A stretch of DNA of 63,881 nt, filler included, from Reclinomonas americana ATCC 50394 (GCA_048213135.1; 3 parts of 2 records of this genome joined end to end with filler, not necessarily neighbours in it); one strand, 5' to 3'; shown: positions 1-63,857, numbered from the whole stretch's first letter. Notes: a model not told the origin generated them from the letters alone. A program made the numbers and translations.

Positions 1-1847
1 CTACCTTACCATCTGCGAATGGCAGGGCTGCTCGGTGCTCCTCGGCTTCAATCCGGTGGAGCTGTCGCGCAATGCGCCGATTGAGAAGTGGGATCGGTGC
101 GTGTTTTGTGCTTGACCTCTCTCCTCCGTCCTCGCCACTGACTCCGTGGCGAGCAGCACCTTCCGTGATGTGGCGGTGGCATTTAATGCACGTGCTGACG
201 ACCGTCATATTATGCTGACGCCGGTGGTCGGGCCCGAGGTAGGCCTGATTGATGGACATGCAGCGAAGCTGCACTCTTCTCATCACTATCACGCTGCAGG
301 GCATCACGGGCTCGACGAGAATGAAGGGCGGCTCCGGCACGAAACTGATTCTCGATGCGGCGTTTGGCGCTGCTCTGCAGACCGCACTGGCGGCGCCAGA
401 AGACGGTGAGCAGGCCGTGCTTCCTGATTTCTCCGACTGTGTCACTCACTTCGCGCCGGCACTCGCAGTCGACGCGTCCATTCGCTCGTGGGTCGAGCGC
501 ATCTTGGACAGCACCGAGGCTGCGGTGGAGCGTCTGTACACCGAGTATGCCACCGACCTGGCGGCTGTCGTGCAGTTGGCTGCCAACTCGCTGGCACAGG
601 GCGGCAGTGTGACGTACTTGGGTCAGGGCAGTTGCGTCTGCAGCAAGGAGGAATGTGCGGAGCTAACGACTCACATGATCCTCTGCTGCAGATTTCGGTC
701 TCCTCGGCTTTGTTGATGCCTCGGAGTGTCCGCCCACCTACGGTGCCGCATTCACCGACATTCGTGGATTCCTTCGCTATGGGTGGGACGAGATGCGCAA
801 CCAAGAGGTTCGCCTGATGTGCACCAGTCAGTTTGTGCTGCACCACCGCTCACTGACCATGGCGAACAGGGAAACCTGAGTGGCGTGGGTGCGCCGTACG
901 AGATCTCACATGCAGACTTTTTCAGCAAGGTCGCACCGCACCTGTCATCGAAGGACCTGGTCGTCTTTTTGATGCAGACCACAGAGGAGGTGGAGTACTA
1001 CGCCGAGGTACGCCAGCGCATTGAGGCGGCTGTCGAGACGGCCGAACGACCTCGCATGGCGGCTCTGTGTGTGTTCGACGCCGAGGTCGGTGGACGCCAC
1101 GATAGTTGTTGTTATTGTTGGTGAACGTCCCTCACGTATTCTGCAGGGACCACGAGTGCACATGGCCGATGTCGATGCGTACATCTCGGTGCCGGTGGCC
1201 TCCTCTGTCAAGACTGCTGTCGGTCGGTTCACTCCGGAGGCTGAACTCTCGCTGAAACTGAGTCTGAATGCCATCACCACCGGCATGTGTATCTTTTGGT
1301 GGCTCAGGTTTATTGTCGATCCGTGAACTCACCCAAAGGTATCGTCACGGCTCACGATGCAGGTGCCCATGTGATGAAGGGCCTGGTGTTCGGCAATCGC
1401 ATGATCAATGTCAAAGTCAGCAACAACAAGCTGTACCACCGCGCCATTTCCATCATTGCCACGGTATACCGCGTTCCTCTGCTCTGGATCATCACGGAGA
1501 TACCCATCCATTTCCTGTGCAGATTGCCAAGGTGTCAACCGAGGAAGCCACTCGTGCCTTGCATCGCTCGATTTACGAGGACATTGATCCGGAGCGCGAC
1601 GTGTCCGTGTCGGAGCGCATCAGCGTGGCTGTGGAGAAGGAAAAGGTGAATGCAATGTGCTTGTTGTGGGAGGCGAAGAGAGCGAAAGTCTGACTTTGCA
1701 GTTCTTCGTGTACAGGTCGTCCCCGTGGCGTTGCTGTTGGCGTTGCGTGGCCGTGAGATCGCGGCCAAGGACGCCATTCGCGCGCTGGCGGAGGAGCCTG
1801 TGGTGCGAGTGTGCATGCAAAAGTGGACCGAGTCCAAGGGTTCATGA
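1..1847 (+). CDS. GCKR: Glucokinase regulatory protein-like (tandem SIS domains), 5'-partial, multi-exon
   Basis: Spliced translation: LLGFNPVELSRNAPIEKW, VVGPE|GITGSTRMKGGSGTKLIL, LGFVDASECPPTYGA, ELSLKLSLNAITTGAHVMKGLVFGNRMINVKVSNNKLYHRA; TGA at 1845-1847. Confidence 0.85.
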
Positions 1848-1901
1848 GCGGAGTACATTCAGATTTGATTTACGGTACTGCTGCTGCTGTTGTTGTTGCC
1901 A

Positions 1902-4900
1902 CTAGCAAGTGCACTGGCTGAGCGGCACATTGAGCGGAGGCGTGTGACCGCAGCACGGGACGTAGTACGGATCTGTGGATCGAGAGTGTGAGTACGCAAG
2001 AGAAATGCCGAAACGATGATCCGCATCCCTGACCTTGCGGGTCGAGCTGCGGCTGGCCCTTGACAATGGTGGCCTGGTGAGCGGCCACGGCAGCTTTGAT
2101 CTGCGCCATGATGTCGGGGTACTGCGACACGTCCAGCGGGTACGCCTCGCTCGGGTCGTGCTGCGCGGGACATGTCACACTCTGATAAGAACAACGACGT
2201 GCTTTGTGTGCAAACCTCAATGTTGTAGAGGAGAGGCGGGTCGTGCTTCTGCGGCGCATCCAGCGTGAACCCGTCGCGCGTGAAATAGTGCGCCTTCCAC
2301 GGACCCACACGAGCAGCGTACAGCGTGTGCTCGCGCCAGTAGAAGAACTGATTGCTGACACCCTGCGCGAGTGATAAGAGAGCACCGTCAGCGCATGCAG
2401 AGCGTGTGGGAGTAATGTGTGGCAACGCAACTGGCCCATTGTGGAACAGAATGTTGGAGAGGCTGTGGCCGTCATAAACGCGGTCGGAGGGCGGTTTGGC
2501 ACCTGGGTAACGGGAATGAGTGGGGAGCACAATTGTGGGGTGAGAAGTGGAGCGCTTGCTGCAGCGCACCAGCCAGCTCAGCAATCGTGACAAAGAGGTC
2601 CATGGTAGACGCCTGTGGACGCATTCATGAGTAAGTATTTGCTCCCTGTGAACAAGCTCGTGCTGGTTTCATGCGAACCACTTCCATCGACAAAGTCATG
2701 GGTGCGATACGGCCGGGCCAGCGCGCGATTGCGGGCTGCAGCAATGCAAGTCAAAACGAGTGGACGGTGAGGGGCTAGACAATGCATCGCAACTTCACGC
2801 ATGCCACCCTCCCACGTGGAACCCTGCGAGTGTGACTGCGTTGGCGACGGCACGAGTAAAGAGTGTGAATTGAGACGTACCTTGCCGCCGCGGAAGAGGC
2901 CGCCGCTGCCGCCTTTTACTTCCTACGAGAGGAGTGTGTGTGTGTGCATGAGTGAGTGAACAAGCAGTGATGCTTCGATGCAACAGCATGCTGCATGACG
3001 AGAGAGACCTGGTTAATCCACGGTCCGTTGTCTAGCAGCAGACACCAGTGAGACAATAATGAACAATACAGCGACCCAGGGGAGACCATGCACCTGAAGT
3101 GAAGAACACAAACGTGTTGTCGTCGAGGCCGAGACTCTTCAGGCGCTGCATGATCATGCCTGCATTTCCCACATGAGATGCCTATCCAACGGTACCAACA
3201 AAATGGAGGGACGTACCGATAGAGTTGTCCATCTCTTCCATGGCGTCGCCAAAGAGACCACTGCATGACGAAACGAGGATAGGTCACCAAACCGCGATAC
3301 AGCCACTGCGGTAAAAAGTACACAAACAGACCGGCGCGACACATTCTTGAATTGATCACTGGCAAACAGATCCACATGCACCTCTGTCGCGCACATGTCA
3401 GCGAGTGGAGTAGAATTAGAGGCAGAAAACATCGCTCACCGTCGTACGCCATGTACAAGAAGAACGGCTTGTTCTGGTTGTGCGAGATGAACTCAAACGC
3501 ACGAGCATTGTATCTATGTTGGAATGGTGATGATGAAAAACATACATACAGAAACAGCGATGTCGAGGGTGACGCATTACCGTGGAGTCAGCGTGTCGAG
3601 GTCCACCGGCTACACCAAGAGGAGTGAGTGAGTACGAGAGAGGACAAGAGATAGCCGGAGTGGCAGCGTCACCTGCTGGATGATGGTGTTGTTTTCCATC
3701 TGCACGCGCAATCCCAAAAGTGAGCGGATGAATGTAAATGCATGCGACAAGCTGAGCAACTCACCAGCGGAACACCCTGTGTGGAGTGCAACATGCAGCA
3801 AGTGAGTCAGTAAAAGAAAGGGAGGCGCATGAATTGCATGCACGCACAGGCCCTGTTTGCAGAGAAAAGGAGTCAGTGAGAGGGGAGAGAGAACAGCTCG
3901 GGAACACAAACAACGCACAAATGTTCTGCCACTCCTGCAAGCACGACCAACAAACAAGCTCGTGAGCGCCATAATTGTGGCAGTAAATGGCTGAGCAGGG
4001 GCACGCAACGTGGCAGGGGTACGGCGGGCATCCTTCGTCCTGTGAGTACGGCCTGCGCACGGAAAAAATGTAAATCGCTACTCCACTCCATGCGCGCATT
4101 CCACGGACGCAACAGGCCCTGCACGACAACGAGTGAGACCATGGACGTATCACACGCGATTCGCGGCACGCACGTAAAAGTAGTCGAAACCATGGTCCGT
4201 GGGGCGGAAACCGGGGAGATGTCTTCATAGAGAGAGTGGAGTGAGAAGTTATCGGCTCACTGCACCACCTTGCACAAAACGCACCCCAGATGCCACTTGC
4301 CGATCAGACTGTATGGATGTACACGGAGGCGTGTCAGCGGAGAAACAAGTTCTGAACAGCGAGGCACGAAGAAACAAACCCCGTCTGATAACCCGACGAC
4401 TTGAGCAGCGACGCAATGGTAACCTCCGAGGGCGGCAACCCGCCCGTCGACGACGGGTAGAACACACGGAACACATTGTCGGCAGGCCAGTCATCCGCCG
4501 TGTACACGCCGTTGCGCTACCGGAGGGAGAGCGTGAGCGAGCAGTCACGCGACGAGAAGCCACAAAAAGAAAACGCAACAATCGGCAGTCGGCCCGTCAT
4601 CAGTGCTGCGGAGCATCATGGTNNNNNNNNNNNNNNNNNNNNNNNNNNNNNNNNNNNNNNNNNNNNNNNNNNNNNNNNNNNNNNNNNNNNNNNNNNNNNN
4701 NNNNNNNNNNNNNNNNNNNNNNNNNNNNNNNNNNNNNNNNNNNNNNNNNNNNNNNNNNNNNNNNNNNNNNNNNNNNNNNNNNNNNNNNNNNNNNNNNNNN
4801 NNNNNNNNNNNNNNNNNNNNNNNNNNNNNNNNNNNNNNNNNNNNNNNNNNNNNNNNNNNNNNNNNNNNNNNNNNNNNNNNNNNNNNNNNNNNNNNNNNNN

Positions 4901-5548
4901 NNNNNNNNNNNNNNNNNNNNNNNNNNNNNNNNNNNNNNNNNNNNNNNNNNNNNNNNNNNNNNNNNNNNNNNNNNNNNNNNNNNNNNNNNNNNNNNAAGGC
5001 ATGACTGGCGACACAACAATAGAGAGAGAGATCGCGTGCACGCAACAAGCACGCGACGGAGAGCAGATCGGAGCTGGCGACAAACAAGTAGGAGGTGTGA
5101 GAACAATTCGCAGAATGCGAACACCGACGATGCACATTCTCACTCACCGCCAACGTAAAACTGCGACAGCCGCATGCCCTCCACCGCCAATCGATCAATG
5201 TTGGGCGTGCGAATGGTCGGGTGGCTGCACAGAGCAGAAGCAGTGGTGGTGAGCAGCACACGAGAGAGAGAGCAAAGAACAACAATGAACGCACCCAGTG
5301 ATCGACAAGTCACCGTATCCCTGCAACAAACACACGCGTCAGTGTTGACCACGATAAAGGGCGAAGAGAGAGACGCGCACCATATCATCAGCGAAGAAGA
5401 CGACAATGTTGGGAGGTCCGCTGCCTGTGAAGCAGTGCGTGTGAGACACAGTCATGCAAGCATGAAGAGCGAGCACGCAACGAGCAGCCATGACTGCACT
5501 GCACACAGCAAGCAGCACAAGAGCTGCAAGAACGCTGCGGTGGACCAT
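1902..5548 (-). CDS. Secreted/lysosomal arylsulfatase (ARSA/GALNS-like), more than 20 exons
   Basis: Signal peptide, PNIVVFFADDMGYGDL, HPTIRTPNIDRLA, formylglycine motif CSPSRASLMTGR, GKWHLG, GFDYFYGLPYS, SDNGPW, GKGSTWEGGMREP, C-terminal PCC..CTC; TAG at 1902-1904. Confidence 0.94.
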
Positions 5549-6619
5549 TGTTGTTTGGTGATATTGATCCTGTGTCCTGTGCTCACAGTCTTCATCGATC
5601 GTTTCTGTGTGTGAGAGCGACAGGAGTGTGTGTGTACGTGAGTGTGAGTGTGTGTGCAGTTATCAGTGTGACAGCATGGGAGCAGGAGCAAGTGGAGCAG
5701 GTGGCGAGGAGCGGTTGTCGTCAGCAAAGCAAGTTGCGCCACTCGCACCACACACACACACACACACGAGTCGCGCGTTCTCTCTTGTGTGTGCATGTGT
5801 GTGTATGTCTCTCAGTGTGTGTTTGCACGCGCGTGTGTGCGTCACACTCACTCACTCATCGTTTTCACGTGTGCATGCAAGCGCAGAAGCTGGTGCATTC
5901 CATTGGCTCACTGGACATTGTTGCGTNNNNNNNNNNNNNNNNNNNNNNNNNNNNNNNNNNNNNNNNNNNNNNNNNNNNNNNNNNNNNNNNNNNNNNNNNN
6001 NNNNNNNNNNNNNNNNNNNNNNNNNNNNNNNNNNNNNNNNNNNNNNNNNNNNNNNNNNNNNNNNNNNNNNNNNNNNNNNNNNNNNNNNNNNNNNNNNNNN
6101 NNNNNNNNNNNNNNNNNNNNNNNNNNNNNNNNNNNNNNNNNNNNNNNNNNNNNNNNNNNNNNNNNNNNNNNNNNNNNNNNNNNNNNNNNNNNNNNNNNNN
6201 NNNNNNNNNNNNNNNNNNNNNNNNNNNNNNNNNNNNNNNNNNNNNNNNNNNNNNNNNNNNNNNNNNNNNNNNNNNNNNNNNNNNNNNNNNNNNNNNNNNN
6301 NNNNNNNNNNNNNNNNNNNNNNNNNNNNNNNNNNNNNNNNNNNNNNNNNNNNNNNNNNNNNNNNNNNNNNNNNNNNNNNNNNNNNNNNNNNNNNNNNNNN
6401 NNNNNNNNNNNNNNNNNNNNNNNNNNNNNNNNNNNNNNNNNNNNNNNAACGCATGCTCACACGTTCACACACATGCACGCGAGTGGCAGAGTGCGAGCGC
6501 GAGAGAGAGTGTGTGTGTCATGTCGCGTGCGAGGCCACGCTTTTGTTTTGTTTGTTTTTTCCCCTCGATGAATCTGGCATTCACATGCGCAAAAAAAGGA
6601 CTTCCCGTTGAACGAGTCC

Positions 6620-7246
6620 ATGTCGAAGATCGAGGTCGATCAGCTGTGGGAGGTACGCGCACATGTGAGCGATTTTCCGCGGACTCTCAGTACTCACATC
6701 TCCCACACAGGTGTATGACAAGGATAACAGCGGGTTCCTGGATCAAGTCGAGCTGACCAAGGTCGGCCACTGTGTTGCCTGTGGCCTTGCAGCTTGGGTG
6801 TCGCTTGCTCATGCTTGTGTGTTTCCCCCTGCGCAGCTGATTATCGATGTGTTTGACGAGGTGGCGAACTACAAGGGTCTCAGGTGCGCGCCTCCTTGCA
6901 ACGCGTGGCTTGTGTGCTGTGGCCCTGACACAACTGCAGTGAGGCCAAGAAGCGCAAGGCGCAGAAGCTGCTCGACTGGGCCCTCTCGCCCGAGTCCACA
7001 CGAGCGTTTGCCGATCTGCTGCTGGAGTTTGACAAGAACCAGGACGGCAAGATCAGCAAGTTGCGCTTGCGCGTGAAAAGCAATGCCTGCTGTACCGAGG
7101 GAGAAGCTCATTGTGTGTGTGTGTGTGCAGGCAAGAGTTCCGCGATCACTACCAGCAGGTTTGTTGTGCGTGCGCGGTCTGTTAGCTTCTGTGAACGTGC
7201 GTGCTCATGTGTGGTATCGCCGCAGCTGCTGGCCGTCTTCTTCTGA
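6620..7246 (+). CDS. Small two-EF-hand calcium-binding protein, 6 exons
   Basis: Spliced MSKIEVDQLWE|VYDKDNSGFLDQVEL..., FDKNQDGKISKQEF; two canonical EF loops; TGA at 7244-7246. Confidence 0.82.
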
Positions 7247-7503: not shown

Positions 7504-10172
7504 ATGCGCATGCTGTTGACTCGCCTGTGCGGTCGCCGCCTCTTCTCGTCCTCGGCGGCTGCGCGCAGTGCCAATGTGCCCGCTGTGGTGCCGAACAGCT
7601 CTGACACTCCGCCCGAGAGCCCTCCAAAGCACATCCCCACCGGGAAGGAGGTGGCCGACGCCGCCTTTGCCACTGCGCGATCGCACGTGCGCACCATGGC
7701 GTTTGCGCCACAGCCGATCCTCACCTCGGCGCAGCAGGAGGAGGCCTCGATGCCGCGAGTGCGACCGACAGCGTTGCCGTCGTTGCAGTCGCTGCCGGTG
7801 ACACTGAAGGATGTGCGCAAGGCACACGCGGCCATCAGTTGCGCTTCACTCGCGTGTGTGTGTGTGTGTGGAGTCCGCATTTGGTTGTTGATTGCGTCGG
7901 TGATCATCAGAGTCGTCGATTTGCAAGACCGAGCTCAAGTATAGCTTCCACCTGTCGAACTTGTCGGGTTGCGAGGTGCTGCTCAAGTTGGAGAACACGC
8001 AGATGACGGCCTCGTACAAGGAGCGTGGCGCGTTGAATAAGCTGTTGGTGCGAGCGATGATGGTGTACGGATCTTCGTGGATTGTTTTCGAACTCTCGGC
8101 TCATGTTGCTGGCGATGTGGTGTGTGCGTGTAGAGTTTGACTCCGGAGGAGCGTTCGCGTGGTGTCATTTGCACGTCTGCCGGCAATCATGCGCAGGTGA
8201 GTGTGTGCGTGTTGGTGGAGAGGGAGATCCGTGTTCCGCGGACAGAGATATATTTGCTGTTGTTGGTTGCAGGCGGTGGCGTACCAGGCCAGCCGGCTCG
8301 GAATGAAGGCCACCATTTGCATGCCACGTACCACGCCGTTCACCAAGGTGTGTCTTCCGCGGGAGTGCACTGGCATGCTTGTCGGCGACTCACACTTGCA
8401 ACGGCCCAACAGGTCAGCGGCACCAAGCGATGGGGCGCCAAGATCGTGCTCAAGGGCGATTCGTTTGACGAGACCATGCAAGAGAGTCTGCGCATCCAGA
8501 AGGAGGAGGGCAGTGTGTTCATCCACGCGTTCAACGATCCTATGGTCGTAGCTGGTGCTTGCGGGATGATGGTATCGTGCTTCATGCGCACACTTTCACT
8601 GACTTTTTTTGTTGCGCAGGTCAAGGCACTGTGGCGCTGGAGGTGTTGGGTGAGTGACCTACTAGATATACATGTGTTGTGCAACGATGATCGACTCATA
8701 TCTCGCACCCGGCACAGAGCAAGACCCGTTCATCGACAGGTACATCTTATCGGCCATTATTTCTCCGGGCGAGTCGCTTTGCGTTCTCACTCGTACTGCG
8801 TAGTATCATTGTCCCCGTCGGTGGTGGTGGTCTAGTGGCTGGCATCCTGGCCGTCGTTGCGTTCTTGGCTCGCATCGCATTCCGCTTGTGTGGCGGACCG
8901 CTGATTCTGTGTGATCGTGCAGGTGAAGGCCGTCAATCCGCGCATCAAGGTCGGCGGCTTGAACACCGTGTCCTCTGCTTCCTTGCCCATGACTAACTTG
9001 GCATCTCTGTGGCAGGTTTACGGAGTCGAGTCGGCGCAAATGGCTGGCATGGTGCGCAGGATGTGGTGCAAGCAAGCGATTGTTGTTGTCACTCACGCAT
9101 CACGTTGTGCAGAAACGGAGCATGGCGCGTGGAGAGGTGACTTCTGTGGCTCCTCGGTGCGTCACCTTCTTGACCCTGCAACTGATGCTTCGCCGCCAAG
9201 ATGCATGTGCTCACCGCATACATTTTCTCCTCCCGCAGCAAGACAATCGCCGATGGTATCGCCGTCGGAACCGTGGGCAAGGTGCGTGTTTCTGTGTCTC
9301 ATTATTCCCCGGAGCTGGCACCTCACCGCTGAACTGCCCTTCCAGATTCCTTTTGACATTATCTTCCCGTACCTCGACGAGCTGGTGTTGGTCGACGAGA
9401 ACGACATCAGGTGTGTCATTAAGATTTTGCTTTCTCACATCATCTCTGCTCAACTGTCGTCGCGTGCAGTCTGGCGTTGCTGAAGCTGCTGGAGCTGGAA
9501 AAGACTCTGGTGGAGGGCTCGGGTGCGGCCGGTGTCGCTGCGCTGCTGAGTGGTCGCCTGCCACTGCAACCGGGCGAACGGACCGCCGTCATGTGCACGG
9601 GCGGAAGTTGCGCTAGTTTCACATTACTATGGATCGTCTCTCAGTTTTCGCTCACCGCCATCATAACCCCCCAGATATCGACATGGCCGTGATTGGCAAG
9701 GTGCGTGGGACGCACCTAATGTACCACATTGTGGCGCTGACAGTTCTTATTCGATGCAGATTATCGATCGTGGTCTCGTCAAGGTCTCGCACCAACTCAC
9801 CCTGCCACCACGCACATGTGTTTCACCTCGCCTCACTTTCTCTTCCTCTCGCACGCAGGATGGACGCCTCACGCGCTTCATCTTCACCGTGCCCGACGTG
9901 CCGGGCTCGCTCGCCAATGTTCTCTTCTTCCTGGCCGACCAGGGTGTCAATGTGCAAGACGTTGGTGAGTTTTGCCCATCCGAGCTGTTTCACGCCTTTG
10001 CGTTTGACGACTGAATCGCCACACCCTCGCAGCACACGAACGGTCGTTCTACGACGTGCCTGTGGGCTTCACGCAGCAGATTGTCACGTGCGAGGTGCGC
10101 GGCCACGACCACATTGCCTCAATCCTGGAGGGACTCAAGACCCTCAACATCAAGTACGAGGTGGTGCTGTAG
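7504..10172 (+). CDS. ilvA: Threonine ammonia-lyase (dehydratase) with one C-terminal ACT domain and a likely mitochondrial presequence
   Basis: LKLENTQMTASYKERGA (PLP lysine), SAGNHAQAVA, FIHAFNDP, AGQGTVALE, VPVGGGGL, TIADGIAV, VEGSGAAG, TGGNID, ACT motif VPDVPGSLA..HER; Arg/Ser-rich N-terminus; TAG at 10170-10172. Confidence 0.95.
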
Positions 10173-10451: not shown

Positions 10452-11890
10452 CTAAATGGAACCCCCGTTCGCCCCAGACAGAGAGAGGAACTCGCGTCGC
10501 AGCTCGCGGTTGGAGCGGAAGTCGCCGGTGGTGAACACGGTCACGGTGGTGGAGCCAGTCTTCTCCACGCCACGCATGGCCATGCACATGTGAGTGGCCT
10601 CGGTGCGCACCGCCACGCCTCGTGCACCCAAGATCTCTTGCATCGTCTCCGCCACCTGCCGCGTCAATCGCTCCTGCACCTGCAGCCGACGCGCAAAGCA
10701 CTCCACGAAGCGCGCCATCTTCGACAGTCCCAGAATCTTGCCGTTGGGCAGATAGCCGACAGTCACTTTGCCGTAGAACGGCAGCATGTGGTGCTCGCAC
10801 ATGGAGAAGAAGTCTGCGTGCCGCGGTGANNNNNNNNNNNNNNNNNNNNNNNNNNNNNNNNNNNNNNNNNNNNNNNNNNNNNNNNNNNNNNNNNNNNNNN
10901 NNNNNNNNNNNNNNNNNNNNNNNNNNNNNNNNNNNNNNNNNNNNNNNNNNNNNNNNNNNNNNNNNNNNNNNNNNNNTACGACACAAAAAACAATACAAAA
11001 AACACGCACGAGACACGCAACTAATGTCCTTGACGACCACCATCTCATCGGCCTCGTCCTCAAACACGGCGTCGTTCAACACCTCTGCCACCACGGTCAA
11101 CAATCGCAACAGACACACGCACACACAAACAAAGAGGCGACCACACACCAATCGGATCTTGTTGATAGCCCTGTGCTCCATACATCAGTCACCGTGGAGA
11201 GCAGGTACACACAGAGAGAGGGTGACGCACACACATACCTTGGTGAGGAAGCACAGAGCCTTGGCCCAGCGATCCGGCGTCTTCAGCAGTCCATCGCGCT
11301 TCACATCCTCACCAATCGCCGACAAGATCTTCACACACGTACACAAATGAGTGACAAGCAAACACGCACACACACGCGCACACGCACCTGTTCGCCTGCC
11401 TCTCGCAGTGCCTCCAGCTTGGCCTCTGGCACATCGCCCATGGACAGCGAGGGTGCCGCGAGTGAAGGCGAGCTCTCCTCATCACCCTCGCGACGCATTG
11501 CTGCTTGTCGATGCGCGTGGTTGTGCTGACCGTGACGATGTGCAGGCGACGATGAGCTGCTCTGCCCCGAGCTCTCCTCTGCGTGAGAGAGAAAGAGAGA
11601 GAGTCAGTGCATGTGTGTGTGGGAGAGTGTATGTGTGTGCGCGCAGACAAACCGCCGGAGAAGTCGTCAATGGAGCGCGACTTGGTAAAGGCGCTGCGCT
11701 GCTGCTGTTGCTGTTGTTGTTGGTGGAGAGGGTGCTGGTTGTGTCGCGGCGCTGGAGGCGACGAGGGTCCGCGCAGAGGCTGCTCGAGGGGGGAGAGTGG
11801 AGATGCAGCAGTGTCGGAGTCGTGGCCGGCGGTGGCCTCGGCCGGTAGTGAGATGCTGTCGCCGAGGCGAGTGGGTGCGGGGTCGCTCAT
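10452..11890 (-). CDS. GCH1: GTP cyclohydrolase I with long low-complexity N-terminus
   Basis: [74 protein letters not shown]. Confidence 0.96.
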
Positions 11891-12040: not shown

Positions 12041-15000
12041 TCACTTGGGCTTGGCCACCGAGTACGTCGGAAACGGTGGCTGCCAGTCGCTGCCGGGTGC
12101 GCGAGCCGCTGTCGCCGGTGGGGCGGATACAGGAAACTGCAGTGGCTGTGACAAGGCCGACGGCGGGGTCACTGCCGATGTCGGCTGCAGTGATACCGGT
12201 GAGCGCTGGTGCGACAGCAGTGTGATTCGGGCAATGCCGAGCGAAGCACAGTAGACGCGGTGATCGCCGTTGGCCCAGTCCTGCTGCTGGCAGTGGCGAC
12301 TGCAGTAGCGCGCAACATGGCACCGCGAGCAGCGCTGCAGCACACAATTGCCGCTGCCGCACGACCAGCATAGCCGCTTCCACCGCGAATTGGCCGACGA
12401 TCCACTACCGCTTGCAGCTGCTGCAACTGCCGCCGCCGCCGCTGCTGCTGCAGATCCCGACGCCGGCTCCACCTCCGCCTTCGTAACATCTGTTGTTGGG
12501 ACTAGTGTTGTCGACGCCGGTGTCGTTGTTGTTGTTGATGCTGTTGCGGCTGTCGTCGTTGTTGTCGTTGTTGTCGTGGTGGTGGAAGTGGTGGTGGTGG
12601 AAGTGGCCGAGGTTGCAGACGTCTTTGACGACATGCTCAAGCCGGCTGCCGCAGCAAATAGTGCGTACGCTGGCGCCTCGCGTTCACGATATCGCTGGCG
12701 CTGGGCGGCGCCACTGGAGATGGCCGACATGGCACTCGGTCGGCTCGGGTACGTGCTCGGGTACACGTACAACAGACCTGGGCGATGCACGCCGGGGACA
12801 TGCATCAGCGCCGGCACCCATCGTGGGTCACTGGCAGGCGCCGGCGATGAACCGGGAGCGGCCTCCAGGCCCATGGCAGTCACCTCTGCTGCCGCCGACG
12901 GCGGCACCACACGCGACACAATCTGCTCGTACAGCGGATCGGTGTGTGGCAGCGTGTTGGAGCCCTCTGGCACGCGCACGTTGACGGCCACCGACGGCAC
13001 ATGCGCCTCGCTCGCTAATGGCGGTAGTGTGGGTGACGGCGGTCTCACGGGCGGAAGAGATGCGAGCGCTTGTGCGGAGAGTGAGTGCGATGCGGGTTTG
13101 TTGTGCACGCCATTGACGGTCGACGAGAGCGTGATGGTGGCGCGCACCGGCTGATCCGATGCACTTGCGACAGCCGGCACCGCTGCACACAGAAATAAGG
13201 ATGAGCGCTCGACAAGAGTTACAGTGGACAGACATCACCACCACCACCAACCTGCGGCGCCGTTCGCCGGGGCCTTGCCCGTCTGGGAGTTGGAGACGGC
13301 AACTGCAGCAGCAGCCATGGCTGCGACCTTGGCCTGCAACGGCATGTTCATGTTCGACGAGTGCCGCAGCACCGCAGACGACACGGCCGCCACTGCCGCC
13401 ACCAGAGCCTCGGATTCTGTTGAATTCCACAATGGCTCCAACTTTTTCAGCGCCGCCGGTGGCAACGAGGCCACCAGCGACATGATAGTTTCCGAAATCT
13501 CCTCATCCGGCAACACAATCGACCCCGGTGTTCCTGCCACAGCGTTTTCGCTGAGTGCATGCACCACGTGATCGGAGCAGACGGGAGAAAAGAGAAAGAA
13601 AGAAAAGACAAACCCTCCGCCGCAGCGGCCACTGCCAGCTGCTCAGCACGATCAGTCAGCGTCCGCGTCGCTTGCTCCCAACTCTCCGTGGCTACACGAT
13701 GATGAAACAGGTGAGCAGCGAGAGAATACTCCTTCAAAACATTTCGACGAACACAAAACGCAACGAATGGCATTGATGATTTCGCAAATGGAGGACGGTG
13801 TGAGCCTCGGTGAGTCCAGCAGACGAATGAATGGCTCTTTCGCGGCCGCCGGTGCGGCCACCTCAACCGGTCCAGCTGCTGCCGGTGGTGGCGAGGCGAC
13901 TGGCGGAGTCGGAACGGGTGCAACAGGTGGCGGCCGATTGCCGACGCCGTGCCGAATGATCGAGTCTCGCAGCCAGTCCACCAACGGTTCGCCAAGTGTC
14001 TCAAACTATGTGCATGCGACCACAAAAATGAGCACCGCATGGCGACCCCCTGTCTCTAACTGCCGACACTCACCACGCCCGTATTGAACACATCCACTGG
14101 AACTGTTCGCAAACCGAGATCGACAAACGTGTCCACCAGCACACGAAAATCGGCGTCGGGTCCGTGCGGATGTGATTGCGCAAAGGGATCGCGTTCACAT
14201 CGCTCGCACTTGGCACCGCCAGCTAAACACGTCACCACCGACGACTGTAGCGCGGTGAGGAAGAGCGACTTGAGCACTGGTGGTGAGTAGTCCAGCTCGC
14301 CATCCGTGCCGGCCACGGTGGGTGGCGACGGGTCCAGAAGCAAGAGATCGGGCAACTCCTCAAAGATGGCTCGCATCTGCCGCCAGTACCCTTGCGTCAC
14401 ACACATTTCTAGTGGCGTGTCAATCGCCTGTGTACCACACACATAATGTCAGTGTCTCCATCATTGTTGCAGGCACTTTGTGTCGACTCACCGCACACGC
14501 TGCACGGGAGCGACAATCCACGCAGTTCGAGTCGTCCGAGTCGTGTGGTGGTGGCGTTGGGTGCGAATGTGGATGAGCGCCAGCACGAATGAGTGCACGA
14601 ACAATGCTCACATCACGCCCGTAGTAGCACGCCAAGTGCAGCGGCGTGTACTGCGCACACAGGGAGGAGGTGAGTCGAAGAGCAGGAGCAAGAGTGGCGT
14701 GTCGAAGAGCTGCCTCACCCCCGACACATTGGCCAGAGTTGGATCGGCGTTGTTGGCAATCAGCACCGTCACATGTCTGTATGTACCGTACATGACTGCC
14801 TCGTGCAGTGCATACCATCGACCGGGTTTGATGGGCTGGCTGACCAAAAAGGCGCCCGCCTGTGTGATGTGTCTCCGATAGTTGTCGAAATCGACCACTT
14901 CCCGATCGCCCAGCAACGTCGACTGGCCCAGCACCGACGCCTCGTCTGGTCGAAGATGATACGCGGCACACAGTGTGTGATACGTGAGACGAACCCAGCG

Positions 15001-15813
15001 CAGTGCATTTGGGAAGATGTCCCACAGTGACGCATGTGAGCTATGTGTCAACCTCACGCGAGTAAGACACTGGTCCACACGACAATGACGACGACCAAGT
15101 AACTTGGTGTAGGCCAGCGCCGTCAGCCACGAGTTGGGCGGTCCCAGATGACGCGGCTCAGGCAGCGGGCATGAGCCCGCCGGTCGCTGGTGCACCAGTA
15201 ACCGGAACGTAGGGTGACAGTGGATCATGGCAAACACGCAGGCGCCACGCACAGTGACGACTTTTTCGAGGATCTCGTCTTGCTCCTGTCCGTGTGTCGT
15301 GTGAGCACAAGAAGGGGGAAGGCACAACTCACAAGTGCGAAGCGCAACAGTGAGGGCAGCCAGCTTCTGCAGCGACATGCGTGGCGGCACAAACTTGCGC
15401 TCCCCGTGCAGCACAAAGTCGAGCAGCACCTGATTCCACATCCAGTAGCATTGCGTCTCCGGACGGGCAAAGAGCGCCGCGTGCGAGCGCATGAACGAGG
15501 CCGCCTCCTCAAACTTTCCCAGTCGCATCAGCACCTCCGGCACACTGCAAGCTCACAGTGAGCACGTACACGTACAAGCGCCCACACACGCGTCAGCACG
15601 AAACTTGAGACTGTACACGCAGTCTGGAAACCCCAACCCACCCCCCTTGTTGTCAGCACCAATTAGCAACACAACAACAGAACAACAAGAAGAAACACAC
15701 CGCTGTCGGTCACACTCATGTACTTGCTCAGCGCATCCTCGTACCGCCCGATGCGACGCAGCGCGTTGGCCACACAGTGAATGGCGCGCGGGTCACGCGT
15801 GTTGCCCAAACGG
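12041..15813 (-). CDS. TPR-like + ankyrin-repeat + C-terminal MYND zinc-finger protein (5' end in gap)
   Basis: ANALRRIGRYEDAL (TPR-like), ALHEAVMYG / TPLHLACYYG (ankyrin), CWSC..CSRC..YCSRHCQQQDWANGDH..C (MYND), linked by GT-AG introns. Confidence 0.75.
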
Positions 15814-16754: not shown

Positions 16755-17257
16755 GGGCTCACATATCACCGCACAGGCGATGCGAGTGGTCGCGTGTCGC
16801 ACCCCTCGTGTCCAATGACCTACGAGTGTGTGCCGCTCAACACCAGTGTGGCTGACATTGAGCAGCTGGTGACACTGGACTATGCAGAGCACACGGCAGT
16901 TGCGTCCGCAGGCGAGGGAGTGAGCAAGCAAAGCAAACAGAGAGTGGCTCACCTTTTTCTGTGTTAGGCCTGTGCACTGGAATTGGCGCGCGACTCACGC
17001 GCGCGACGACGCAAGTCGGAGGCGGATGCGTCGGCGGCGGCAGCGGCAGTGGCAACAGCAGCAGTGTCGTCGTCGTCATCGTCGTCATCATCCACGCCCA
17101 CGGAAGCAGAAGATGACAGTGAGCAGCAGCAGCAGCAGCATCGATCGTATTTGCCGCCGGGCGACGACTCAGATCCCGCCGACGTGGCCGATCGGCGTGT
17201 CTATCTCAAGTGCCGGGCACCGATCGAGGCGCTGGCGGCCTCGCGTGCGCGAGAGAT
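16755..17257 (+). CDS. Fragment of an unidentified gene between two gaps
   Basis: Two exons joined by intron 16899-16967 give an open frame (..TYECVPLNTSVADIEQLVTLDYAEHTA|ACALELARD..RRVYLKCRAPIEAL); no recognisable family. Confidence 0.4.
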
Positions 17258-24000: not shown

Positions 24001-24076
24001 AGAGCGGTGGCGAAGCTCGGTCTAACGCACCAGATTAAGGTTCTGGCATTCGCGGGTTCAAATCCCGTCCGCTCTA
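24001..24076 (+). tRNA. tRNA-Leu(AAG) with short (5-nt) variable loop
   Basis: Acceptor AGAGCGG/CCGCTCT+A73; D arm GCG-AAGCTCGGTCTAA-CGC; anticodon arm CCAGA-TTAAGGT-TCTGG; variable CATTC; T arm GCGGG-TTCAAAT-CCCGT. Confidence 0.93.
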
Positions 24077-26955: not shown

Positions 26956-27382
26956 ATGTCATTCCTCGAGCGAGCGGCCAAGTTGCGCCACACACACACA
27001 CACACACACGCACACTCACTTACATCCACGCGCACACACACGCCTACAAGATCCGTCTCTGTCTCCGCCATGTGACTGAAGTGAATTTGGGCGGGATGTG
27101 GGGGTGTTTAGTGCGTTTCTCCCGGCGGCGGTGATCAACCCGATGGAGAGTGAGCGGCTCATTCAAGAGCTGCGGCAGTTCGAGCTGAAGGACGTGGGCA
27201 CACCACGGTTTCGTACCTCTTCTTGTGTGTCTTTCCTCGCGCAGCAGCAGCAGCAGTTTGACGCGATGCACAGTTTCGTGATGCAACTGGAGTGGGTGTC
27301 GAAGCTCAATCTGCAGGCGCACCACTCGGCCGCCGTCATGGAGGACGAGTTTGTGGTGGAGCAGCTCATCTCGCATGACAAG
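26956..27382 (+). CDS. ZMYND10: ZMYND10 (BLU)-like dynein assembly factor, N-terminal part (scaffold end)
   Basis: PMESERLIQELRQFELKDVGT..QLEWVSKLNLQAH..AAVMEDEFVVEQLISHDK matches the remembered ZMYND10 N-terminus; cut off by the spacer. Confidence 0.78.
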
Positions 27383-27447: not shown

Positions 27448-27547
27448 NNNNNNNNNNNNNNNNNNNNNNNNNNNNNNNNNNNNNNNNNNNNTTAATTAAT
27501 TAANNNNNNNNNNNNNNNNNNNNNNNNNNNNNNNNNNNNNNNNNNNN
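27448..27547. other. Artificial scaffold-joining spacer (N44-TTAATTAATTAA-N44)
   Basis: Exactly 100 nt with a six-frame-stop linker at 27492-27503; identical construct at 52956-53055. Confidence 0.97.
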
Positions 27548-40194: not shown

Positions 40195-43053
<2,859 letters not shown>

Positions 43054-50409: not shown

Positions 50410-50459
50410 TTGTTATAAAAAGAAATGAGCAAATAATTGTTGATTTTTCCTTCGTCTGC

Positions 50460-52955
50460 TTACTTGGCCGCCGCCGTCTTCTTGCCGCCTCTGGCTCTCG
50501 GCGCAGCCTTGCCACCTCGCTTGCCCAGCTTGCCCTTGGGGACCGGCATCGCACCATCCTCGTCCTCGCCATCTTCGTCGTCACCCAAATCCGCCGCCTC
50601 CGCCACCTCGGTCTCCTCGTCCTCCATCAGGCCGAACTTGACTTTCGAGGACATGGCCGATTTCCGCTGCAGGTGCACACATGTGAGACTGAGACAGCAG
50701 CGGCAGCAAGGGAGGGAGAAGTGAAGTGGCACGAAACGACAACAGACTCCTTCTTGTGATCCTTGTTGAATCTGACCCGAAAATAAGCAAAGGAGTCAAC
50801 TGTGCGCCTAAGACACCCACTCACACACACCTTCGAGTGAACTGCGACTTGACTTGCGTGGCGATTCGGTCGGGCAGGAAGCGCTCCTTTGGATCGCTGC
50901 TCAGCTGCTCCAATTCGTGGATCGCATCAAAGTCGTCCTTACTCAAGCCCATGCTGTCCAGCCGCTGAATGGCGTCGGTGATGAGAGCGTCACGCGCAGC
51001 ACCCTCCAGAGCCGAGGCTGCCGAGAATGCTCTGTCAGCACGGCGGCCTTTGGTGACACAAGAGAGAGAAGGCGACACAAACCGTCGATCAGCGGCTGCG
51101 TGAGCCAGGTACGGAAGAACGGGAGAGTCAGCGTGACCATGTCAAACTCGGAGCCCGGATTGATGCCGGCCACACTCATGCCGCCCATGATGCACTGCAG
51201 CTGTCGCTTGCGCTTGTTGAACGACGACAGCTTGCCGAGTGCTCTGTTGTTGTTCAGTGAATAAACAAAAAACAAACGCGTGCGGCAGCAGTGGAGAACG
51301 AAACTGTGGGAAAGTGACGCCATAGCGATCCGAGTCACGCAGTGGCTCCCACCGACCACGCATGGTGGCGCCGGGGTACACGCACGAGAGGATGCCCATG
51401 GTCGGCAGCAAATCCCACGACTGCGCGCCACGGACCAGCGAGTTGCACACGTCGCCAAGTGAAATGGAGTCGGCGGCACGAGCCAGTGCCTCCAGACGAC
51501 CCAGCTCCGTGTTGCTGCGATTCTCGCCAAAGGCACCGGCAGCGGCATCAAAGTTGCAATAGTTTTCCTGTTGGAGACACACGTCAGCACGTCGTCGCCC
51601 GACGTTGCAAGGGAGGGAGTCACGGATCGCGCACCGCCAAGAAGAGAGGCATAAAGCTGTAGTCCTCGAAAAAATCGTTCAGTCGCTTGCCCAGTGGATC
51701 ACGGCCGTACTCGCTCTTCAGGAAGCGCTCCGCCAGTGAGAATCCACTCAAATCCGTGTTCTTGAACACCTCGACTTGCGTTCTGTGGGCACGAATGGGA
51801 GTGAGCGAACTGCAAGTACAGAGAAAGCAGTGGTGCGTTTGCAACTTTTGCTTCATGTCGTCATAGTCGAGCCGAGTCCTGTTGCGCGTCATCATCTGCA
51901 AGTTGTTTATGATGGAGCGAATGTCATTGTGCTGCGATTCGATCAGCATCTCCACCGCCGGCATTTGGATTTGCACGCCCTTGGCGCGCAGCTTGTCAAT
52001 GAGCCACGTCGACAGCGCCTGCTTTGATGGTCTGCACGAAAGATAACGAGGTGAGTGATGTGAGAGTGGTGTGTGTGTGCCTTCTCCTTCGTCGGACTCA
52101 ACTTGGTCACTCGCATGTCGACACAGTACGGAATCAGTGACTTGAGTTTCGGGTGGTACCGATCGTTGCAGATGCAGATCACAGGCACCTGGAGCGATGC
52201 AAGTCAGCATTCCACACAAACGAGAGACATCTACACAAGTCTTTCTCTTGCACCTTGGCCTTCTTGATCATGTCGATGAGTTGACCGACGCCGCCGCGAT
52301 CACCAGAGCCCGACATGCCATCGATTTCGTCCATGATGAGCGCCAGTCGCTTGTGGTTGGTCGACGTGCCGTGAATGGAGCGATTGGTGACTACGTCGAC
52401 CACGGAGCGCTCCATGATGCTCTTGCTGCGCGCATCCGAGGCGTTGAACTCGACCACCTCAAAGCCGAGTTCTTTGCTCACCACGTGCGCCAGAGTTGTC
52501 TTGCCTGCGTGCGAAAACCACAAAACGTGAGCAGAAGAGGTGGGGATGCACGTTGTAGGGAAGCGCGATCTCACCAATGCCCGGACCACCCGACAGCAGC
52601 ACAGCATTCTTGCGACACAATTCGTCAATCAGCTTGTCCTTGTCCTTGGCGTGCGACGCCTGATTCAGCTGGTGGATGGCGTGATCGAGGGCGCCCTTGT
52701 CGTCGGTGAAATGCAGCAGGAACACTTTCAACTGCTTGGCCAGCATGGCATGCCCGACAATGTCGCCCGACGAGCGCGGCGCCCACTCGTCGACCCACAG
52801 GCCCGAGTTCGCATCGCGAACAGCCGACGACGACAGCGAGGACGAGCCAGCACGCACACCAGATCCCGACGCCGACGACACGTACGTGGACGACAGGGAC
52901 GATACCGGTGGAGACGACGAGTACGAGCCCGAGGAGAACGACGACGACGATGCAG
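50460..52955 (-). CDS. RFC1: Replication factor C large subunit, 5'-partial
   Basis: LWVDEWAP, LLSGGPGIGKTT, VEFNASDARSK, LIMDEIDGMSGSGDRGG, PVICICND, ENY, AADSISLGD, FPQ|ALGKLS, VKSQFTRRFNK. Confidence 0.95.
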
Positions 52956-53055
52956 NNNNNNNNNNNNNNNNNNNNNNNNNNNNNNNNNNNNNNNNNNNNT
53001 TAATTAATTAANNNNNNNNNNNNNNNNNNNNNNNNNNNNNNNNNNNNNNNNNNNN
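52956..53055. other. Artificial scaffold-joining spacer
   Basis: N44-TTAATTAATTAA(53000-53011)-N44. Confidence 0.97.
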
Positions 53056-54829: not shown

Positions 54830-54865
<36 letters not shown>

Positions 54866-55723: not shown

Positions 55724-55784
55724 NNNNNNNNNNNNNNNNNNNNNNNNNNNNNNNNNNNNNNNNNNNNNNNNNNNNNNNNNNNNN

Positions 55785-56147: not shown

Positions 56148-57053
56148 CTAGTTATCCATGTCGCCGGTGCGATCCAGCGTCTTGAGCGAGTGGTACAGCT
56201 TGAGCGCGGCGATGCGCTTCTCCGCCCCACGTGCGCGTGGTGGTGTCAGAGCCTGGCGTAGCCGATCACGCAGAGTGGCGCGGTACGCCTTCAGTGTCCT
56301 CAGTTGCTGGCCCTTGGCCTCCAACTTGTCGATCAGCTCACGCAATGCCGAGCCCAACAACGCGTCGTTTGGTGCAGTGGTGCTTGTGCTCTGCGCACGT
56401 TTCAGAATGTCTTCGTACTTGCTGTGCGGCAACGGAATAATAAGTACGGAGACATTCCACAGCGCACACGACGGCTGCAGCACGCAACGCATAGAGGTCG
56501 TCGTACTCGCGCTGTAGTGCCTGGATTACCTCGCCGACATCCGCGTTGCGGTCGCGCACCGCCGTGAGAATGTCCTCGGCCTGTCGTGTTACTCTGTCGA
56601 CAGACACGCGCGGAGTGCACACGGAGCAGTGGGCGTGGCCGGGTGATTCGTCACCGTGTCGCGAGTAGTCGAGTGAGCGCTGCACAGCGGCCGCTGTGTT
56701 GTGTGAGGCACCCGACTGCGATCGAGCGAGCGTGAGCACCACCAAACGACAAGAAACAGAAGCAGCAGACGTGACGCAACACTGACTCCGGCAGGGATGA
56801 ACGGCACCTCCTCGCCAAGATTCGCACGACGCAATCGGTCGTGAATGGTTCGTCGCGGAGTAATGGAGCGCTTTCTTGTGGCCGATGCAGGTCGAGCAGA
56901 CGACGGACGGGAAGCGCTGGAGCTGCGCAACGACGCCGCGCTCGCCTCCTGCAACGGCAAGCTGCTAATGTCGGTGGTGGTGTGCAGCAGCGCAGAGGCC
57001 ACCGTTGGTTGTTGATAGTGCGGCATCGCATCGTATGCCTCGCTGTCCTCCAC
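56148..57053 (-). CDS. CEP57: CEP57-like C-terminal part (in the inverted segment)
   Basis: EVPFIPAGVS|SGASHNTAAAVQ, DVGEVIQALQREYDDL, LRELIDKLEAKGQQLRTL resemble the Cep57 central motif and microtubule-binding domain. Confidence 0.75.
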
Positions 57054-61591: not shown

Positions 61592-61883
61592 TCGTTCCCG
61601 CCGAAATCGTCACTGATCGACAGCAGCGATTGCGTGTGCGTCTCACTCTCTCACACACTCACGCACAGTCGCCCTCCACTGTGACACTGATCACTCGCCA
61701 AGCGCGGCAAAAGACAACTTCAGAGGCGAGAGAGAGAAAAAAAGTCACGAAATTTCACTTTGCATTTCACAACACACACATCGCGGCTGAGAGCAACCGT
61801 TTTTGTGACTTCTTTGTGCGTCTGTGTGTGTGTTTTCCTCTCCACTGTGCGGTGTGAGAGAGAAAGAGTAAGAACCAGACGCG

Positions 61884-63857
61884 ATGGAGCCACACGTGCG
61901 CAACGATGACCACGACGCTGGAGGCACGACACACGCTGCAGCAACGTTGCGACGCACAATATGTTCCGGACATGGCACTCAGCTCTCACTCACTCTTCCC
62001 CTTCTCCACAGGCGTCTCTCTCCTCCACTGCGTTTCCCCGCGCCGGCAGTACCGCTGCCTGCGCCACCGCCAGTGCCGCAGCCGCCGCACTTTGGCGCAA
62101 GTGTCTCCCCACGCAGTGGCACTCCACCGCCCTCACAGCGACTGCCACCGCTGCCCACCGACGCCGCCAGCAGTGTCAGACGTTGCGCGCGCACACACAC
62201 ACACACGCACACAAGTAAGCGTCTAACACATACACACACTCTCAATCAATGCACAGCGTTGAATGCGGCTCGATTGCTGGCCGGTCGCGGCTTCAACAAT
62301 GCCGCGTCACCGGCGTCGCCGACGTCGTCGCCGCGCTTTGCTCTGGCGACCACATTGCCTCCACGTTTGGCGACGCTGCCGGCCGCGGGAAGCGCCGAGC
62401 CGGCGGCAGCACGCTTGTCGGATGTGCGACTGCATTTGCCACCGGCGCCGTTTGCCATTCGACCGAGTCGCGCGGTGCATGATGACGAGGATGATGAGGG
62501 CGGTGATGATGAGGCGCCGCCGCCACCGCCGCCACCGCAATCGACGGCTTCAGCGTTGCGCCCGGTGACACCGTTGCAGCCGTTTGCCATGTCGATGAAT
62601 CGATCGCTGGGCCCGCGTCCAATCCCGGGACAGGTGCCGTCGCCGCCGCTGGATGCGCCGTTGCAGTTCAATCCGCTGTTTGCGTCGCGTGCGGTGCGTC
62701 ACTGTCGTCGTTTTTTTGTGCATGCCATCGTCTCACCATGTTCTTGTTTGCTCGAACAGTTGTCACCGCCGNNNNNNNNNNNNNNNNNNNNNNNNNNNNN
62801 NNNNNNNNNNNNNNNNNNNNNNNNNNNNNNNNNNNNNNNNNNNNNNNNNNNNNNNNNNNNNNNNNNNNNNNNNNNNNNNNNNNNNNNNNNNNNNNNNNNN
62901 NNNNNNNNNNNNNNNNNNNNNNNNNNNNNNNNNNNNNNNNNNNNNNNNNNNNNNNNNNNNNNNNNNNNNNNNNNNNNNNNNNNNNNNNNNNNNNNNNNNN
63001 NNNNNNNNNNNNNNNNNNNNNNNNNNNNNNNNNNNNNNNNNNNNNNNNNNNNNNNNNNNNNNNNNNNNNNNNNNNNNNNNNNNNNNNNNNNNNNNNNNNN
63101 NNNNNNNNNNNNNNNNNNNNNNNNNNNNNNNNNNNNNNNNNNNNNNNNNNNNNNNNNNNNNNNNNNNNNNNNNNNNNNNNNNNNNNNNNNNNNNNNNNNN
63201 NNNNNNNNNNNNNNNNNNNNNNNNNNNNNNNNNNNNNNNNNNNNNNNNNNNNNNNNNNNNNNNNNNNNNNNNNNNNNNNNNNNNNNNNNNNNNNNNNNNN
63301 NNNNNNNNNNNNNNNNNNNNNNNNNNNNNNNNNNNNNNNNNNNNNNNNNNNNNNNNNNNNNNNNNNNNNNNNNNNNNNNNNNNNNNNNNNNNNNNNNNNN
63401 NNNNNNNNNNNNNNNNNNNNNNNNNNNNNNNNNNNNNNNNNNNNNNNNNNNNNNNNNNNNNNNNNNNNNNNNNNNNNNNNNNNNNNNNNNNNNNNNNNNN
63501 NNNNNNNNNNNNNNNNNNNNNNNNNNNNNNNNNNNNNNNNNNNNNNNNNNNNNNNNNNNNNNNNNNNNNNNNNNNNNNNNNNNNNNNNNNNNNNNNNNNN
63601 NNNNNNNNNNNNNNNNNNNNNNNNNNNNNNNNNNNNNNNNNNNNNNNNNNNNNNNNNCCGCGTGCGGCTACTGCGCCGACGCCGTCGACTCCAGCGACCC
63701 CGGCACCGGCGCCGCCGCTCCCAGAGACGCGACAGCCATCGGCGCCTGTACCGCCGTCTACGCCGCAGCCGCCGCCGAGAGTGGACACGCATCCACCACC
63801 GCTGCCGCCACTGCTGCCCATGTCGCCGACGTCGGCGACGAACACGCCGGCGGGTGA
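61884..63857 (+). CDS. Proline-rich protein, partial, unidentified
   Basis: ATG 61884, introns starting at 61946 and 62182, polyproline/acidic exons; large gap follows. Confidence 0.5.
   Translation: MEPHVRNDDHDAGGTTHAAATLRRTICSGHGTQLSLTLPLLHRRLSPPLRFPAPAVPLPAPPPVPQPPHFGASVSPRSGTPPPSQRLPPLPTDAASSVRRCARTHTHTHTSKRLTHTHTLNQCTALNAARLLAGRGFNNAASPASPTSSPRFALATTLPPRLATLPAAGSAEPAAARLSDVRLHLPPAPFAIRPSRAVHDDEDDEGGDDEAPPPPPPPQSTASALRPVTPLQPFAMSMNRSLGPRPIPGQVPSPPLDAPLQFNPLFASRAVRHCRRFFVHAIVSPCSCLLEQLSPPXXXXXXXXXXXXXXXXXXXXXXXXXXXXXXXXXXXXXXXXXXXXXXXXXXXXXXXXXXXXXXXXXXXXXXXXXXXXXXXXXXXXXXXXXXXXXXXXXXXXXXXXXXXXXXXXXXXXXXXXXXXXXXXXXXXXXXXXXXXXXXXXXXXXXXXXXXXXXXXXXXXXXXXXXXXXXXXXXXXXXXXXXXXXXXXXXXXXXXXXXXXXXXXXXXXXXXXXXXXXXXXXXXXXXXXXXXXXXXXXXXXXXXXXXXXXXXXXXXXXXXXXXXXXXXXXXXXXXXXXXXXXXXXXXXXXXXXXACGYCADAVDSSDPGTGAAAPRDATAIGACTAVYAAAAAESGHASTTAAATAAHVADVGDEHAGG

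Follow-up and report, generated by a model that had tools for sequence, protein, structure and literature searches.

Genes and introns of the window

We examined a stretch of 63,881 bases (the window) from Reclinomonas americana ATCC 50394 (GCA_048213135.1) for a second class of 5′ splice sites, or donors, that typically begin the intron with GTTGCG. The window consists of three scaffolds with TTAATTAATTAA spacers and N runs between them; it contains 21 N runs in total. Two spacers of the form N run/TTAATTAATTAA/N run, at 27448-27547 and 52956-53055, indicate that the scaffolds were joined artificially. The sequence is eukaryotic, has a G+C content of about 57% and is dense in short introns (median about 66 nucleotides, nt), whose branch motif is CTSAY and which end in YAG. 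Genes treated below include a sulfatase, a threonine dehydratase-like gene, GTP cyclohydrolase I and RFC1.

Ordinary donors in these genes resemble G^GTGCGT, where the caret marks the cut. Shifted donors carry T at +3 and G at +6 without G at +5. Their consensus equals the ordinary G^GUGCGU displaced by one base in the intron direction, and the exon end shows no preference for G. Sites are given as ranges, and minus-strand sites read from the higher coordinate.

Shifted donors in gene models

We predicted introns with a Viterbi parser that scores 3-periodic coding statistics, intron length, and matrices for the acceptor and the branch; introns had to be at least 40 nt long. GT alone was required of the donor, and we refer to this as the blind parse. 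The coding model was trained on exons between seed introns and then iterated. Unsupervised codon-model training on long open reading frames was dropped because it drifted into low-complexity frames. The blind parse yielded 304 introns over both strands, in a window with 7555 GT sites. Many of its predictions with odd donors are clearly off by a few bases, and such misplacements would dilute the GTTGCG signal, not create it. A donor-aware re-parse gave 180 introns in 32 kept models, with counts that are partly circular.

GTTGCG is the commonest donor hexamer of the blind parse (22 introns), ahead of GTGTGT (19), GTGCGT (17) and GTGAGT (12). It is also the most enriched hexamer, with 22 of 74 occurrences used as donors, compared with 304 of the 7555 GT sites (4%; binomial p ~1e-13). 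For GTGCGT and GTGAGT the corresponding figures are 17 of 99 and 12 of 94. Other bases hardly replace the T at +3, as GTAGCG is used at 1 of 16 occurrences, GTCGCG at 0 of 58 and GTGGCG at 1 of 92.

An earlier note on this DNA had listed 34 shifted donors, 31 after A, C or T and three after G, spread over all three scaffolds. Each of the 34 coordinates carries the motif on the strand given, and the flanking bases and scaffold distribution agree with that description. As donors, 24 of the 34 are used in the blind parse and 32 in the donor-aware re-parse. Of the 142 blind-set introns that belong to kept genes and measure at most 130 nt, 20 have a shifted donor, as do 37 of the 180 donor-aware introns. 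This rate of one in five to seven is near the one claimed, and bears out the description of the class as routine.

Protein homology and codon-resolved junctions

We then compared these predictions with spliced alignments of proteins from other organisms to the window. The protein-to-genome aligner used BLOSUM62, allowed any intron phase and had GT..AG as its sole splice requirement. A strict homology-only set contains the 29 introns with well-aligned flanks. Spliced alignment confirmed ten of the listed sites, in four genes.

The sulfatase gene (1990-5570, minus strand) was aligned to an annotated plasmid sulfatase of Chondrinema litorale (locus L001 1659-3128), with 221 of 456 columns identical. 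The alignment contains 25 introns and confirms five shifted donors. One of these, ctt^GTTGCGT at 5040-5046, lies inside the C-x-P-S-R active-site signature and begins an intron that spans an N gap (4623-4995). It passed the strict flank test, as did att^GTTGCGT at 4573-4579, cct^GTTGCGT at 4107-4113 and gaa^GTTGCGA at 2787-2793. The fifth, cca^GTTGCGT at 2425-2431, was found by alignment and in the blind parse; the blind parse also uses the 4107-4113 site. Two further donors of this gene are present in both parses. One, ctc^GTTGCGT at 5475-5481, follows a signal-peptide exon. The other, cac^GTTGCGT at 4003-4009, falls where conservation is poor, and the alignment did not recover it.

The donor at 4107-4113 follows a 5-nt micro-exon, GGCCT (4114-4118, minus strand), set between introns of 55 and 61 nt. 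Without this micro-exon the spliced alignment would lose both the frame and its match to G-[IL]-P-Y-S, a conserved motif in the bacterial sulfatase. Other exon lengths in the gene include 12, 23, 24, 26 and 27 nt, and its 25 GT-AG introns in 449 aligned codons correspond to 18.6 per kb of coding sequence. The sulfatase gene may have come from bacteria and gained its introns afterwards, as suggested by its 221/456 identity to a Bacteroidota protein when the closest RFC1 relatives reach at most about 53%.

The threonine dehydratase-like gene (7504-10172, plus strand) has 16 introns in 407 codons. Two bacterial homologues, drawn from a plasmid collection, confirm tca^GTTGCGC at 7838-7844 and gaa^GTTGCGC at 9607-9613, and the blind parse uses both. 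The latter is the TGG-N-ID junction that the earlier note had cited as evidence from a conserved motif, and the alignments to both homologues bear it out. A third donor, gtc^GTTGCGT at 8856-8862, is present in both parses. There the aligner picked 8853 or 8861 (3 nt upstream or 5 nt downstream), and 8856 reads as a gap-free alignment. No homologue was found with a 47-residue exon of this gene as the query. The gene also contains a probable 63-nt intron at about 8952-9014 (plus strand; approximate coordinates), aag^GTTGGC...TGGCAG, read from the sequence and the spliced alignment. It is in frame and stop-free, and both parsers treat the region as one exon.

In GTP cyclohydrolase I, tta^GTTGCGT at 11015-11021 (minus strand) is the donor for 40 of 40 homologues. 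Its intron spans an N gap. RFC1 (minus strand) was aligned to 19 full-length homologues. Eighteen of them support caa^GTTGAGT at 52096-52102, and 18 support aaa^GTTGCAA at 51839-51845, a donor with T at +3 and without G at +6; 14 of the latter 18 also agree on the acceptor. The blind parse uses both. A candidate, aca^GTTTCGT at 51298-51304, is present in the donor-aware parse and supported by 3 of the 19 homologues, while gtc^GTTTCGT at 50731-50737 is present in both parses. These two lie, like the sulfatase site at 4003-4009, in poorly conserved stretches where homology alignment gave no resolution. The closest relatives of RFC1 in the protein collection reach at most about 53% identity, and a metagenome scan with an RFC1 exon returned distant relatives only (at most 48% identity).

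Protein homology thus fixes ten shifted junctions at codon resolution within these predicted genes. If a cut is moved by one base the reading frame is lost, for example in the sulfatase active-site signature, and we reject an assembly error on this ground. We conclude from the alignments and gene models that shifted donors are genuine GT-AG exon-intron junctions, and that they are common, at 14-21% of predicted introns.

Other shifted donors and intron anatomy

Several more shifted donors are present in both parses. On the plus strand, gca^GTTGCGT at 631-637 begins a 61-nt phase 1 intron. The exon 3′ of it matches MurQ/GCKR from residue 2, and the exon 5′ of it had no relative in a PDB search. 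The others on this strand are caa^GTTGCGC (7060-7066), gca^GTTGCGT (16899-16905), cga^GTTTCGT (32009-32015), gat^GTTCCGT (45408-45414), agc^GTTGCGT (45605-45611) and, after G, tcg^GTTGCGT (48527-48533). On the minus strand they are act^GTTGCGC (15342-15348), ctg^GTTGCGT after G (23824-23830), tca^GTTGCGT (42206-42212; a 379-nt intron with an N gap) and agt^GTTGCGT (56774-56780). Four minus-strand sites that both parses use fall outside the first list, namely ttc^GTTGCGT (13758-13764), att^GTTGTGT (22542-22548), gat^GTTGCGC (22892-22898) and, after G, tgg^GTTGCGT (23046-23052). Five more were found in one parse.

At other listed sites the parses disagree or compete with rival models. The donor caa^GTTTCGT at 15598-15604 (minus strand) is used in the donor-aware parse only; the blind parse chose 15618. 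The same holds for three candidates, caa^GTTGCGC at 26982-26988 (plus strand), tct^GTTGCGT at 46030-46036 (plus strand; 46021 in the blind parse) and tgc^GTTGCGT at 56482-56488 (minus strand; 56467 in the blind parse). Both parses use three plus-strand candidates that face competing opposite-strand models. One is cgt^GTTGCGT at 19658-19664, which overlaps a higher-scoring minus-strand model. The other two, aac^GTTGCGA at 61946-61952 and gac^GTTGCGC at 62182-62188, lie in low-complexity protein. The listed acg^GTTTCGT at 27208-27214 (plus strand) has no support from either parse, and its implied intron of 37 nt is shorter than the parser minimum.

The 37 donor-aware shifted donors comprise GTTGCGT (19), GTTGCGC (7), GTTTCGT (5), GTTGTGT (2), GTTGCGA (2), GTTCCGT (1) and GTTGAGT (1). 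Of these 37 donors, 28 have GC at the shifted +3/+4 places, against 28 of 100 among ordinary donors (p=6e-7). In other respects the two classes are alike. Median intron length is 67 nt for shifted and 66 nt for ordinary introns, shifted phases (15:13:9) resemble ordinary ones, and the CTSAY branch and the 3′ end are common to both.

We also considered mobile introner copies carrying GTTGCG, and rejected them because shifted introns have no likeness beyond the donor. All-against-all blastn of the 180 introns with a low-complexity filter gave no shifted-shifted match at E<0.01, and the other intron-intron matches are low-complexity segments of 13-24 nt. Dinucleotide runs such as (GT)n and (CT)n are the commonest hexamers window-wide and are frequent within introns; left unfiltered, they give many spurious intron-intron matches. 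Elsewhere in the window, a tRNA gene at 24001-24076 (plus strand) is the sole Rfam match above threshold.

The exon-end base and the register of the consensus

The blind set contains 81 donors with G at +5, 64 of them after G, and 20 shifted donors, three of them after G (p=1.7e-7). The remaining 41 of the 142 are mostly misplacements. The dependence between the -1 base and the T+3/G+6 signature that the earlier note had asked to see tested is therefore present in the window, with shifted donors at 3 of 67 exon ends in G and 17 of 34 ends in another base. Among the 29 introns of the strict homology-only set, 5 of the 7 non-G exon ends are followed by GTTGCG, compared with 0 of the 22 G ends (p=1.8e-4). 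Some non-G exons keep unshifted donors, as had been noted, and the real ones are near-perfect GTGCGT or GTGAGT.

This association reflects a preference that is lost rather than reversed. G precedes GTGCGT at 19 of 25 donors and at 10 of 74 non-donor sites. For GTTGCG it precedes 3 of 31 donors and 6 of 43 non-donor sites, which is the background level. The claim that the class is tied to exons not ending in G thus holds in part: the strong preference for G at -1 is gone, but G is not depleted, and the class is indifferent to the last exon base. A precedes 15 of 37 shifted donors and 8 of 43 non-donor GTTGCG sites (p=0.047).

Within the intron, the 20 blind shifted donors have G at +4 (17/20), C at +5 (18/20), G at +6 (20/20) and T or C at +7 (20/20). 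Positions +4 to +7 thus repeat positions +3 to +6 of the ordinary class, which is GTGCGT/C-like, and the whole consensus lies one base deeper. The heptamers G^GTGCGY and ^GTTGCGY are one base apart, and each is cut at the GT it contains. The suggestion that intron G+1 stands in for the exonic G-1 fits these statistics, with T+3 obligatory, the consensus displaced and no preference for G at -1.

Comparison with known systems

Splice sites in a +1 shifted register were reportedly described in mammals by Roca and Krainer in 2009 in NSMB (Nature Structural and Molecular Biology), with U1 pairing said to be shown by suppressor U1. Shifted-register sites are rare and atypical in mammals, and in humans the register is regarded as a rare means of rescuing odd splice sites. 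They share with the sites described here a GU at the cut, a consensus displaced by one base, and intron G+1 in the place where exon G-1 pairs. They differ in abundance, as 14-21% of predicted introns here belong to the class, and so do 17 of the 34 blind-set donors that follow a non-G exon. The motif is GUUGCGY, whereas the mammalian form is A-rich, and U1 pairing is here proposed from sequence alone.

U12-type introns have the donor motif RTATCCTT and the branch motif TCCTTAAC. They resemble shifted introns in forming a discrete second donor class beside the main one. RTATCCTT and TCCTTAAC are absent here, however, and shifted introns have the branch, 3′ end and length of the main class. We rejected a U12-type identity, as shifted introns start with GTTGCG and have CTSAY branches.

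Bulged-nucleotide U1 registers were reportedly described by Roca et al. in 2012. Bulge and asymmetric-loop registers, as presented in the available text of Tan et al., 2016 (PMC4856993), likewise involve an extra nucleotide between GU and a +5-like G in the major spliceosome. The class here differs in that T is the only extra base and the preference for G at -1 is lost, neither of which is expected of a simple bulge.

Mamiellales (Ostreococcus, Micromonas) have GYGCGY donors and Thecamonas has C+4 donors, both with a standard U1, according to the available text of bioRxiv 10.1101/2022.06.08.495308 (see also Irimia and Roy, 2008, PMC2483917). Their signals resemble the ordinary donors of our window (G^GTGCGT, G^GTGCGC) and its CTSAY branch motif. 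The available text of the preprint does not mention a second, shifted class in them. These lineages are also intron-poor over most of the genome, whereas the window is extremely intron-dense. With RFC1 relatives at no more than about 53% identity, the organism does not belong to either lineage. The same text describes lineages in which U1 and donor have co-evolved, with U1 ACAAAC and GUUUGU donors in Entamoeba and U1 ACGUAC and GUACGU donors in Mastigamoeba (bioRxiv 10.1101/2022.06.08.495308). These share with our window a lineage-specific consensus away from GUAAGU. They have one consensus per changed U1, whereas here two registers coexist within the same genes.

A full-text literature search, with subscription papers and supplements outside its scope, gave no description of a GTTGCG or GUUGCG intron class, and its matches were incidental primers and oligonucleotides. 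A search of the same scope on shifted U1 registers returned work on human, yeast and tunicates only, and gave no description of such a class in any organism. What appears new here is the shifted class as a common, stereotyped mode; shifted registers themselves are already known, from rare human introns.

Recognition of shifted donors

The most likely mechanism, to which we give about even chances, is that both classes present one heptamer, G-[G/U]-U-G-C-G-Y, which is bound in a single register and cut at its only GU. The recogniser, most likely the U1 small nuclear ribonucleoprotein, would bind the heptamer in the same register in all introns. Its first G would be the last exon base in ordinary introns and intron G+1 in shifted ones, where U+2 would face the U1 base usually paired with G+1. 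The cut would be set at the sole GU of the bound segment, presumably via later steps (U6, U5, Prp8), and these would have to accommodate a GCGY block lying one base further from the cut. Binding of this kind would account for the near-restriction of the class to GCG(U/C), as one internal mismatch in the register would require the rest to be near-perfect. The single-base difference between the heptamers, the obligatory T+3 and the lost preference for G at -1 are all expected of a +1 shifted register. Experiments in human cells have demonstrated U1 pairing in shifted and in bulged registers, as reported in the available text of PMC4856993.

Several observations weigh against this proposal. The earlier note had called for pairing energies to be compared in both registers, and the comparison does not favour the shifted form. 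We calculated nearest-neighbour duplex energies with the standard U1 5′ end as printed in PMC4856993. G^GUGCGU gives -7.4 kcal/mol and H^GUGCGU (H, any base other than G) -2.4 kcal/mol, while H^GUUGCGU ranges from -2.5 to +0.5 kcal/mol. Controls with another base at +3 range from -1.4 to -2.6 kcal/mol, and bulge controls are similar. A standard U1 thus gives H^GUUGCGU no advantage over H^GUGCGU, and U1 thermodynamics alone fails to explain the non-G preference or the restriction to T. The near-exclusive GCG may instead indicate a dedicated recogniser. Rfam scans of the window at gathering and relaxed thresholds found no U1, U2, U4, U5 or U6, and sub-threshold matches were low-complexity. The likeness of the shifted -1 composition (A 15, C 9, G 3, T 10) to the ordinary -2 composition (A 41, C 24, G 16, T 19; p=0.56) speaks for the proposal, but this comparison has little power. 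The sample is also a single window, taken as 59 kb, with home-made gene models and partly circular donor-aware counts.

The poor pairing of a standard U1 with GUUGCGY could instead point to a dedicated or co-evolved small nuclear RNA (snRNA), that is, a U1 variant or an altered U1/U6 that pairs fully with GUUGCGY and provides a second, parallel code in the major spliceosome. We think this rather unlikely. The class is highly stereotyped, with GTTGCG(T/C) at 26 of 37 donors and GC enriched at the shifted +3/+4 places as given above, and co-evolved U1 5′ ends are known (ACAAAC in Entamoeba, ACGUAC in Mastigamoeba; bioRxiv 10.1101/2022.06.08.495308, available text). Against these stand the standard U1 reported in the same text for the C+4-donor lineages, Mamiellales (GYGCGY) and Thecamonas, the likeness of shifted introns to all others apart from the donor, and the snRNA-free Rfam scans of the window. 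It is quite improbable, in our view, that U1 pairs in its normal register with G+1/U+2, bulges out one U (+2 or +3) and pairs with GCGU as usual, which would leave the link to non-G exon ends as evolutionary compensation only. Bulges at +2/+3 are documented at human sites (PMC4856993, available text) and the energies predicted for bulged controls are similar. Any extra base should then do, yet GTAGCG, GTCGCG and GTGGCG are used at 1/16, 0/58 and 1/92 sites; G-1 would still pair and should stay enriched, yet it is seen at 3/31 donors against a 6/43 background.

The class might also be set after U1 binding, if contacts of U6 or U5/Prp8 require a G that may sit at the exon end or be shifted into the intron, so that the human interdependence of -1 G and +5 G would take an unusual form here. 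U1 energetics leave the preference unexplained, an association of -1 G and +5 G beyond U1 pairing alone has been described (PMC8283771, available text), and non-canonical U6 registers have been proposed (PMC11162779, available text). An exact one-base shift of the whole consensus is most simply one bound heptamer, and we accord such a late origin a similarly small probability. An artefact, whether misplaced junctions, a T introduced by assembly error or mobile introner copies, is very improbable. The gene models are home-made, the window has its 21 N gaps, and several listed sites depend on the parser alone. Such an origin is hard to reconcile with the ten codon-resolved junctions drawn from homologues in other organisms, the frame that breaks on a one-base move, and the absence of shifted-shifted matches among the 180 introns.

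Implications for splicing and intron evolution

Taken together, these results raise the possibility, which we hold tentatively and think doubtful, that the major spliceosome of this organism follows a two-register code, in which an obligatory G facing one fixed U1 position comes from exon or intron and the cut falls at the first GU of the bound heptamer, or else that a second, GUUGCGY-complementary U1 serves about one fifth of introns. If either is true, intron position would be uncoupled from the constraint of an exon end in G. Such uncoupling may have aided the colonisation of genes by introns, which reach as many as 18 per kb of coding sequence. The extreme intron density with exons of 5-30 nt and the shifted donors occur in the same genes and may be linked.

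Gene finders with a single donor matrix will misplace about one fifth of junctions in this organism. A genome with one stereotyped shifted motif at one intron in five to seven, and behind at least half of non-G exon ends, would also be a natural test system. It could serve to address how U1 binding and cleavage are uncoupled, what the exon-end G contributes, and how much spacing U6 and U5 tolerate.

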